Assembly: GCF_003334785.1 (NCBI RefSeq)
Contig: NZ_QOWV01000017.1
DNA from: Escherichia coli
Lineage (GTDB): Bacteria; Pseudomonadota; Gammaproteobacteria; Enterobacterales; Enterobacteriaceae
Length of the DNA: 64,000 nucleotides
Strand: one strand, 5' to 3'
Made by a program: the position numbers. Within the stretch, counting starts at the first letter, position 1, and each line of letters starts with the position of its first letter. Positions 43,301-46,300 of the stretch are shown piece by piece.

Positions 43301-46300
43301 ATGGCAGATGAGCATCTACATTATAAAGCGGGCAATGCGCGAGTGATTGTGGAATGGCGCGGCTGGCGTATTTTGCCGCTGGTGTGCTACGACTTACGTT
43401 TTCCTGTGTGGTCGCGCAATCTCAACGATTATGACCTCGCCCTGTACGTCGCCAACTGGCCTGCTCCGCGCTCTCTGCACTGGCAGGCATTGCTGACGGC
43501 CCGCGCGATTGAGAATCAGGCGTATGTGGCGGGATGCAATCGCGTCGGCAGCGATGGCAACGGCTGCCATTATCGCGGTGACAGCCGGGTGATTAATCCG
43601 CAAGGAGAGATTATCGCTACTGCCGACGCGCATCAGGCAACGCGCATTGATGCGGAGCTGTCGATGGCAGCATTGCGGGAATATAGAGAAAAGTTTCCGG
43701 CATGGCAGGATGCGGATGAGTTTAGGTTGTGGTGAGTGGGGGTTGTGTTTAAGGACGGGGAGAGTCGGGGTATTACTACGAAAGCCCGCTCCCCGCAAGG
43801 ACTGACGCCAGGTAGTTTCTGTCCATGGCTGCTTTTCGCATCTTACGTCTTAACCCTGCCTTGAATACCTTCTCATTCGTCAAAATATTAATAGCAATGT
43901 GCCGTATCCCTGAAAATAATTCTGCTGCGTTTCCTCTTCTTATTTTGTAGTCGTCTTCATTCATTACCACGTCCAGACGCCTGTGCAGCTTATTCTCCAC
44001 GTGCCAGTGGTTTCGGATTGCTGTGGCGAACTTCTCTGCGGTTAAATCAGCAGAACTGATATAATATCTGACCGTCATTTCTGGCTCTTTCTTTTGTTCT
44101 GCTATTATTGACCGAAAGGAGACTGCCACGCATAATTTCTTCAGTCCTTTCCATTCAAACGTGAAATCAATAAGTTCATCAGGGACATCGCAAACAATAT
44201 GAAGACGGATTTCTTCTCTGCCGTGACTCTTTTCACTCATTGCGTAACTGTCATGCTCTGGATTATTTAATTCTTTCAGCGGAAATTTTTCCTCAAAGGC
44301 TTTATTTAGCCGCCCCTGGTTTCCTTTTACCGCGAATAAATAATCACCTCCCTGTTTTTGTATCTTCTCTGCAATATCTTTCTGGCAACCCATCGCATCA
44401 GTTGTGATGATTTTTCCTTTAATATCCAGCATGTTAAGAAGTTCAGGGATAGCTGTAATCTCATTGGATTTCTCATCCGTCCTGATCTGTCCGATGACCA
44501 GACTGTGCATTGTAGAGAACGCACTAATGACATGAATCGCTCCCTTGCGGCGACTCTTGTCATAAGAATGCCGGAGTGTTTTTCCATCAATTGCGATGAC
44601 GTCTTTATCATCTGAAGTATGGCAATCTCGCATCCAGTTAATAAAGCACTCGTGAAATTTTGAAGGACTGATACAGGATACAACTCTGGCGATGGTATCG
44701 TGAACAGGAATACCATTTTCAAAATCACCATATTGTTTTAAAAAATCGAGATGTGTTTCCCCAAAATCCTCTATATCTTCCCAGCCTTCTGCACCAGAAA
44801 TAACGGCACAAATAGTCAACAGTAGAATATCTGACAATTTATGTTCCACTTTCCAGGCTTGTCTGTAATCGGGGATAATAGAAATATGTTCCATCAATTT
44901 TTTAAGTTCCATTTTGTTCTCCTTAATTATGTAAGGAGTATTTGATCATGTATAAGCAATAAAAAACAGCTTCAGGTAATGAGGAATATCTCAATTTTTA
45001 AACATAAAATGCGAATTATTTAGTACAAAAAATCAGCGTTACGTGATCTTTCCCTGCCCCTGCGCTCACTACCATGGCTCTTTACCACAGCAGCCGGGGT
45101 TGTTTGGGACCGACTTCCGACAGCAGATCCCGGTGGGCCTGCCACCATCTCTTCACAAGCTTATGCTTATTACATGCAAAACGTCCCGTTTTGCATCTTT
45201 GTGCCTACGGCACACCGGTGATCTTTCCCTGATGAGGGATATATTAACTATTGAACATTAGCGCGAATTATTTAGTGCAAAAAATCAGCATCACGTGATG
45301 CTTTTCCTGCTATTAATAACCTCCTCTATTTAACTATATTTTTCATTGATGCAATTCGTAGATTTGAAGAAGTTCAACTGCCACATTTTTATTTTTACTA
45401 TCGCAATTTTTATACCATACCCATGCTTCCGTATTTTTTACTTTTTTTAAATCATCCATAATAAAATCCCCACCAAAAACAGTAAAATACAATGTTTCCT
45501 CATTAAAAATAAAACTCACTGCCCCCCCCTCTTTTATTTTAATTTCCGCTTCATTTGTGTTCAAATCAACTTTTTTAATTACTCCATGTAAGTTGGGTTT
45601 TGATAGTTTTTCTACGCCACCATCAGGAGCGGGTAATATACATCGTTTAAGAACTTTAGCATTTGCACATCCAATAACCCAAATTAGAATGCACACTCCC
45701 ATGTTAATCGCATTAACGTGTCTTAAAACGTTCATATCTAATTCTCTCTCCAGGATGCGAATACATCCAACTTGTCACTTTCTTACACAACTCATCTACA
45801 TCTTCATTCTGTGCACGGGTACATCCCATAGTTGGTTTCCAGCCTTGTCGAGGAGCATAAGGATCGCGCAACGATGATCCCCCACCATGTAGCCATCTTG
45901 CTCTAGTATCTGTAGTATAGATCTTCGTTGTGCCATATGCTGCCGATATTCCTGATTCATTTGTCTCACAACCAACGACTTCACCTGTATATGGATCACC
46001 AGCACCACGTTGAGAACGACGATCAATTCTATTGCTACTATCAAAAGTCATTGAATCACCTGTTTCAGGATCATAATAAATAGTCACTCCTCCAGTCATA
46101 TCAGTAAGAACAAGAGGAGTTTCAGCACCTGCCCGGTCTGGAGCGGGAGGCCCATATACACTTATAACTCGTTCTAACCCCAGTGGATCAGTGTAACGTA
46201 TTGGTACCAGTGGATACGTGTATAGATTTATTCCCCCCTTCAACCCTATCGGATCCTGGGTGATATACCGCCCCTGCAACGGATCGTAGTACCGGTGACG

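Follow-up and report, generated by a model that had tools for sequence, protein, structure and literature searches.

The Tox-LD-peptidase class of toxin domains was predicted computationally by Zhang et al. in 2012 (PMC3482391). Members of the class have conserved H, S and C residues, are linked to type VI secretion systems (T6SS), occur in gamma-proteobacteria among other groups and have an immunity gene after them (PMC3482391). Tlde1a of Salmonella Typhimurium (PDB 7UMA) is a T6SS antibacterial effector with an L,D-transpeptidase-related fold. It acts as a toxin in the periplasm, depends on H121 and C131, and either trims D-Ala4 from tetrapeptide stems or exchanges it (10.1101/2020.02.18.954545; PMC9638812). 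Here we analysed a 64,000-nucleotide stretch of DNA from Escherichia coli (contig NZ_QOWV01000017.1 of assembly GCF_003334785.1; hereafter the window), which encodes an Rhs protein whose C-terminal tip had been read, in an earlier note made from the sequence alone, as a candidate cell-wall-targeting toxin with an L,D-transpeptidase (YkuD)-like active site and an exported immunity protein. The observation behind that note is confirmed and its main reading is supported. The tip belongs, as an uncharacterised member, to a class that has been predicted and in part annotated; it is not a homologue of Tlde1, and it is a relic in this window.

The best explanation of the locus as a whole, to which we give a probability of about 0.7, is that the tip serves an Rhs protein associated with T6SS-1 as a swappable C-terminal toxin cassette, directed against the cell wall and paired with a lipoprotein immunity protein. 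The Rhs protein has 1359 amino acids (aa), is encoded by a minus-strand open reading frame (ORF) at 45713-49792 and ends in FKTR followed by the stop codon (45713-45715). The peptides quoted earlier for the tip and the core end match exactly the minus-strand translation of 45713-46330 (the last 206 codons), and the endpoints given for the tip fall where they should, 46255 being the first base of the Asp codon in DPIGL and 45716 the last coding base. The core end (46175..46255, minus strand) consists of DPIGL at 46241-46255 and then a second 10-residue motif at 46175-46204; this is the PxxxxDPxGL motif, the separator of Rhs core and toxin (10.1101/2024.03.05.583533). The NCBIfam profiles RHS_core and Rhs_assc_core both stop at ORF residue 1206, at the second motif. 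Because the core profiles end there, the toxin proper comprises 153 codons (45716-46174, minus strand). Its sequence is the same as that of residues 1262-1414 of WP_114143336.1, in which the predicted catalytic residues are H1357 and C1379.

Some 164 codons short of the stop codon the likeness to other E. coli Rhs genes is lost, and the 153-aa tip, which lies directly after the core-end motif, is unrelated to other Rhs proteins. The GC fraction falls from 0.641 in the Rhs core (46256-49792) to 0.443 over 45716-46255, and the next gene has 0.328, compared with 0.507 in the whole window. With this drop in GC and the lack of relation to the Rhs core, the proposal of a swappable tip after the core stands; its length of ~175 codons does not.

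The earlier note had suggested searches with the YkuD and Tlde1 profiles and a structure prediction, and both checks turned out in favour of the YkuD reading. The only Pfam family found on the tip was YkuD (PF03734; i-E 4.5e-5, 24.5 bits, positions 53-139 of the 146 of the model). The same family was found at E<=0.001 in 11 of 14 relatives that are 44-54% identical to the tip (best E 3.8e-6), while the Tlde1 profile PF10908 gave no match. An AlphaFold model of the tip, built on those relatives, has the beta-sandwich YkuD fold with pLDDT 75.9 and pTM 0.75, and when solved structures were searched with Foldseek, YkuD-fold enzymes ranked first, weakly (best E 0.058). NCBIfam and PHROGs contained no match for the toxin domain or the immunity protein. 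NCBI names tip fragments 'L,D-transpeptidase family protein', and in genome LR-46 the tip is annotated by RefSeq as a separate protein of this name.

The active-site block, placed by conservation and by hhalign to E. coli LdtB, starts with WLHGGG and lies at 45788..45895 (minus strand). The predicted catalytic codons are those of His96 (45887-45889) and Cys118 (45821-45823, tip numbering), with Arg120 and Asn123 after them, and the motif in the tip reads H96...T116-M-G-C118-T-R120. Conservation was scored in 118 diverse relatives sharing at most 50% identity. In the pattern HGGG...Q...TxGCTRxxNxD, the His, Cys, Asn, Gln and GG pair were present in 100% of these sequences, the Arg in 98% and the Thr in 97%. 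Because of the Pfam match and the invariance of the motif across these relatives, the YkuD active site recognised earlier is not a chance match. The conservation pattern points to an active enzyme under selection.

In hhalign of the family against LdtB, the catalytic-Cys block was aligned with SHGCVRL (E 3.3e-4), and by eye WLHGGG of the tip corresponds to AIHGT of LdtB. The spacing between His and Cys is 22 in the tip, 16 in LdtB, 10 in Tlde1a and 8 in YafK. The tip is nearer to the canonical L,D-transpeptidases than to the Tlde1 family. A comparison with yafK of the same window had also been drawn. The YafK peptide quoted for it is present at 37349-38089, but kinship with YafK/DpaA was not significant in hhalign of the family (probability 0.1%), LdtB being the better match, and that part of the argument lacks statistical support.

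A search of 1.84 billion representative proteins with the family profile gave 339 clusters (50% identity) at E<=0.001. Of the proteins fetched, 147 span the full domain, and in 108 of these it ends 5 residues or less from the C-terminus. Most carriers are RHS/YD-repeat proteins, with lengths up to 2109 aa, and LysM proteins and short signal-peptide proteins are also found; by these matches the domain is a C-terminal cassette found on different carriers. In four clusters it is fused to two LysM peptidoglycan-binding domains, and the one locus fetched from these lies directly after a VgrG gene. Acinetobacter LysM proteins in AlphaFold DB, such as A0A9P3CTW0, are 41% identical in the toxin domain. 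The LysM fusion is independent evidence for a cell-wall target.

A further two cysteines of the tip, Cys56 and Cys117 (140-aa numbering of alignment A2; both non-catalytic), occur together in 27 relatives and are both missing from 90; there is one exception. This co-occurrence fits a disulfide bond, and such a bond would be made only outside the cytoplasm. Among the relatives there are several short proteins that have a Sec signal peptide of their own. The LysM carriers, together with an export signal on every partner protein examined, point to peptidoglycan in the periplasm. From the partner export signals, the Cys pair and the relatives with a Sec signal, we infer a periplasmic target; a cytoplasmic one is much less likely.

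The gene downstream of the tip (45343..45735, minus strand) encodes a 130-aa lipoprotein precursor, WP_001101839.1, the candidate immunity protein. The signal or lipobox noticed earlier at its N-terminus is a lipobox, VIGC at residues 20-23 (encoded at 45667-45678). With the ATG at 45735 as start, which has GGAGAG upstream, the ORF overlaps the 3' end of the Rhs gene by 23 nt. An alternative start, the ATG at 45702, lies 10 nt past the Rhs stop codon, and the lipobox is kept with either start. With Ala at +2, the protein is probably anchored in the outer membrane according to the Lol sorting rule. It is named 'Lipoprotein' in UniRef and, in some copies at NCBI, 'DUF4367 domain-containing protein'; the Pfam search gave only a weak DUF4367 match (E 4.6e-4) and did not find Imm16 or Imm57. 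Single-sequence structure prediction of the protein was unusable (pLDDT 34).

The argument from an exported immunity protein extends to all six loci examined, each of which encodes, downstream of the toxin, a small exported protein with a signal peptide or lipobox (6/6). Four of the five non-E. coli partners belong to one family of ~200 aa, encoded at L004 4597-5190, L007 3645-4253, L008 4853-5437 and L010 2204-2821; they carry signal peptides and match no Pfam family. Immunity to the toxin is probably provided, as a rule, by this family. Neither the LysM-linked partner nor the E. coli lipoprotein is related to it, nor are these two related to each other, and a BLAST search of the E. coli immunity protein against the ~200-aa partners of distant family members gave no match.

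For the enzymatic activity, substrate, periplasmic site, immunity function and delivery, we infer the following course. In intact loci of the aspV island (Hcp-VgrG-PAAR/Rhs-immunity), the PAAR-Rhs protein would ride on VgrG, with the Rhs shell carrying the 153-aa domain. The domain would be freed by autoproteolysis after ...DPLGL and would reach a neighbouring cell's periplasm, where Cys118, with His96 as its activator, would attack a stem peptide at meso-diaminopimelic acid to give a thioester. The acyl-enzyme might be resolved by water, as in an L,D-carboxypeptidase, or by an amine, with exchange or aberrant cross-linking. The wall would then be short of usable tetrapeptide donors or acceptors, or wrongly cross-linked, so that wall synthesis would be corrupted, as shown for Tlde1. 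The lipoprotein, as cognate immunity, would block the enzyme in the periplasm of sibling cells.

Several points weigh against this explanation. The AlphaFold model is least confident at the active-site loop between the predicted catalytic residues (residues 86-104, pLDDT below about 60). Foldseek gave no match to solved structures at E<=0.001, and when PDB chains were searched by sequence, using the tip as well as the family profile, all matches were at chance level. The residue before Gly-Cys, which is His in the canonical SHGC, is Met in the tip and variable in the family, and the loop is 6 residues longer, with an invariant QGW for which there is no characterised counterpart. PAAR-Rhs carriers usually bear toxins that act in the cytoplasm (PMC12994826). 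The immunity assignment is based on gene position and export signal alone; a homologue search with the immunity protein found only E. coli sequences (at least 76% identity), and the protein is not related to the ~200-aa partners. In our literature search, no experimental paper on this domain was found, neither biochemical nor genetic.

We counted the pair in 5426 complete E. coli genomes. The segment of tip and immunity gene was present in 1028 (~19%), always on the chromosome and with a median of one copy; in 1023 of the 1028 it was at least 99% identical. Counted separately, the toxin domain was present in 949 genomes, and 1019 had the immunity gene, so some tens of genomes (~70) keep the immunity gene without the toxin. 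Sampling down the query ranking suggests that roughly 400-500 genomes have the complete vgrG-rhs-immunity arrangement. The tip is also present in Shigella sonnei.

The window itself covers the aspV-yafV-fadE region of E. coli, with tRNA-Asp at 55683-55759. In the intact island, ...tssB and hcp are followed by vgrG, rhs (1414 aa), the gene of the 130-aa protein, an ISAs1 transposase gene and yafV, and strain 720632 has an intact Hcp-VgrG-Rhs(1414 aa)-immunity-ISAs1 locus. In the window, the truncated Rhs core (46175..49792, minus strand, NCBIfam RHS_core match) starts at an internal GTG equivalent to about residue 53 of the intact protein, whose N-terminus is MGGGKPAARQGD..., and the reading frame is closed upstream of 49792. 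ORF residues 1-1206 match RHS_core positions 49-1261; the first 48 positions are absent. These 48 positions hold the PAAR motif, which is present in the intact locus of strain 720632 and gone from the Rhs protein of the window. The truncated gene stands head-to-head with a C-terminal fragment of tssM (icmF; 49834..51117, plus strand), which matches only positions 728-1167 of the 1168 of the TssM profile TIGR03348, and the deletion junction is at about 49800-49813. In strain 1303 the equivalent genes are annotated by RefSeq as pseudogenes. The two halves of a junction query match separate loci in other genomes. The exact rhs/tssM junction occurs in 53 of the genomes counted above; other genomes have other deletion end-points.

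The remnant of the aspV T6SS-1 island (49800-55355) holds the tssM fragment, a tssA-like gene (51038-52480), hcp (52504-52986) and three genes without family match. Within the 64-kb window, vgrG is absent between hcp and rhs, and no other T6SS core gene lies between the tssM fragment and the leftover tssA-like and hcp genes. On the other side, an ISAs1-family (H-repeat) transposase gene (43776..44912, minus strand; NCBIfam transpos_ISAs1, E 3e-122) closes the Rhs element and adjoins yafV, with a like arrangement in strains 1303, UMNK88 and 720632. A terminator-like hairpin, AGCATCACGTGATGCT, with a T-run lies at 45287..45302 (minus strand), about 40 nt past the immunity stop codon; the consensus scan that found this one site expected 0.7.

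The Rhs toxin gene of the window is thus a decapitated remnant. Because the PAAR N-terminus is lost and only fragments of the T6SS remain, the toxin can almost certainly not be delivered here, and it is probably not properly expressed. A rival explanation goes further and takes the whole locus here, the immunity gene included, as inert debris too recent to have decayed. It has on its side the Rhs gene without head and start codon, the tssM fragment, the loss of VgrG and T6SS core genes, and a promoter scan inside the tip that was not above chance (6 sites, 3.2 +/- 2.0 expected). Against it, both reading frames, that of the toxin and that of the immunity protein, are undamaged and show 100% identity to their counterparts in intact loci; more genomes hold the immunity gene than the toxin, as expected if it is retained alone; and the truncated loci with differing deletion end-points all keep it. 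We regard complete debris as doubtful, a minority reading that still deserves weight; the immunity gene is probably the part of the window likely to keep value, as protection against the many E. coli in which this toxin is still in use.

The chemistry of the tip may differ from that of canonical enzymes, because Met replaces the His before Gly-Cys and the QGW loop is longer. We tentatively raise, as a bold idea that we hold well short of an even chance, that the YkuD fold was recruited for an interbacterial toxin a second time, independently of Tlde1 and with its own chemistry (invariant HGGG and QGW and a longer loop); this toxin would be carried by Rhs to the periplasm, hold a family-specific disulfide there and, in E. 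coli, be met by a lipoprotein immunity family that has no relatives elsewhere. If this were true, the reaction would be other than tetrapeptide trimming, with the cutting or mis-forming of 3-3 or Lpp links as candidates. Somewhat less probable is that the fold and compartment are as proposed and the reaction is another one, such as cutting of the Lpp-peptidoglycan link in the manner of DpaA/YafK, cleavage of 3-3 cross-links by an L,D-endopeptidase, or attack on a periplasmic protein.

It is very improbable that the tip acts in the cytoplasm, as a thiol protease or on peptidoglycan precursors, with a downstream lipoprotein that is not its immunity. The usual cargo of PAAR-Rhs proteins would agree with this (PMC12994826), as would an immunity role drawn from gene position only. 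Standing against it are the export signal of the partner in all six loci, across two or three unrelated protein families, the LysM fusions in some family members, the covarying Cys pair that suggests a disulfide bond, and the Sec signal peptide that some relatives have of their own.

Membership of the tip in the Tlde1 family (PF10908, formerly DUF2778), which would have it work just as Tlde1a does, trimming tetrapeptide stems as an L,D-carboxypeptidase and exchanging D-amino acids on them, is refuted by the profile, BLASTP, hhalign and spacing results, and we leave it hardly any probability. PF10908 did not match the tip even at E<=10, and it matched none of 14 relatives; as a positive control, it matched 10 of 11 published Tlde1 sequences from the alignment of PMC9638812 (best E 3e-33). 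BLASTP of the tip against Tlde1a gave no match, and hhalign between the two families gave a probability of 2% and aligned the Gly-Cys block only. The His-Cys spacings differ (22 and 10), and RW[LIV]HGG and GCTR were not found in the part of the published Tlde1 alignment that was searched. In favour of membership, the Gly-Cys block of the tip was aligned with that of Tlde1, and Rhs-fused Tlde1-type domains have been reported, including Shigella sonnei WP_052983304.1, with Rhs fusions making up 11% of the genomes that carry the third Tlde1 subfamily (10.1101/2020.02.18.954545). An RHS+DUF2778 protein appears in one supplementary table, and S. sonnei is a species in which our tip also occurs.

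Some other carriers of the domain have unusual arrangements. [quoted passage not shown] The Acinetobacter LysM relatives were considered as Tse4 or Tae17, which was ruled out, Tse4 being an M23 peptidase and Tae17 a CHAP amidase. The 672-aa protein P0035 is a chimera in which the first ~200 residues, a VgrG N-terminus, are in frame with the last ~320 RHS core residues and the toxin tip, and it looks like another deletion derivative of a vgrG-rhs pair. Four short proteins of 171-197 aa, P0028 (L004 4001-4591), P0016, P0022 and P0025, start with a Sec-type signal peptide joined to the last ~35 residues of an Rhs core (RY.QSDPIGL...DP.GLD), followed by the toxin domain. In L004 and L005 the short-protein gene comes after a Transglut_core2 gene. 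These signal-peptide relatives may be self-exported toxins or housekeeping wall enzymes.

With the cell-wall-directed cassette and its lipoprotein partner as the preferred explanation, the pair, present at the aspV T6SS-1 island in about one fifth of complete E. coli genomes, is probably a common determinant of killing among gut E. coli and Shigella. If the explanation is true, the tip would be a periplasm-acting, peptidoglycan-directed Rhs tip, where Rhs tips are usually cytoplasmic toxins, and Tlde1 could then be compared with another lineage of toxins that have the L,D-transpeptidase fold. The many decapitated loci that keep the immunity gene suggest that immunity outlives the weapon. Current concepts are unchanged: prediction of the class dates from 2012, and public annotation already gives the fold assignment.

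Among known systems, the tip belongs to the Tox-LD-peptidase class. Like the members of that class, it is an L,D-peptidase domain (YkuD, PDB 1ZAT-type) at the C-terminus of RHS-repeat proteins (PMC3482391). The immunity families listed for the class, Imm16 and Imm57, are mostly alpha-helical (PMC3482391). The LysM proteins (metagenomic P0073 and Acinetobacter A0A9P3CTW0) have the same toxin domain and are probable T6SS cargo effectors, likewise uncharacterised, with a LysM carrier in place of the Rhs shell. DpaA/YafK, according to its RefSeq product name, is an amidase that removes Lpp from peptidoglycan. The Tlde1 family shares with the tip the T6SS link, an L,D-transpeptidase-related fold, the His/Cys pair (predicted as catalytic in the tip), an exported immunity protein (a candidate in the case of the tip) and, in some members, fusion to Rhs; the short spacing of H121 and C131 in Tlde1a is not shared, nor is Tlde1a the closest structure to the tip. 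The best profile and fold matches of the tip are the canonical YkuD enzymes, namely LdtB of E. coli, Ldtfm of E. faecium and LdtA of V. cholerae, with the carboxypeptidases Csd6 and Pgp2, which have the HG.. and [ST]xGCxRxxNxDxxxL blocks in common with it. Compared with these enzymes, the tip has the longer loop (by 6 residues), the invariant QGW, and Met in place of the second His. They are housekeeping periplasmic proteins with their own signal peptides and accessory domains, whereas the tip is a bare catalytic domain on an Rhs protein.

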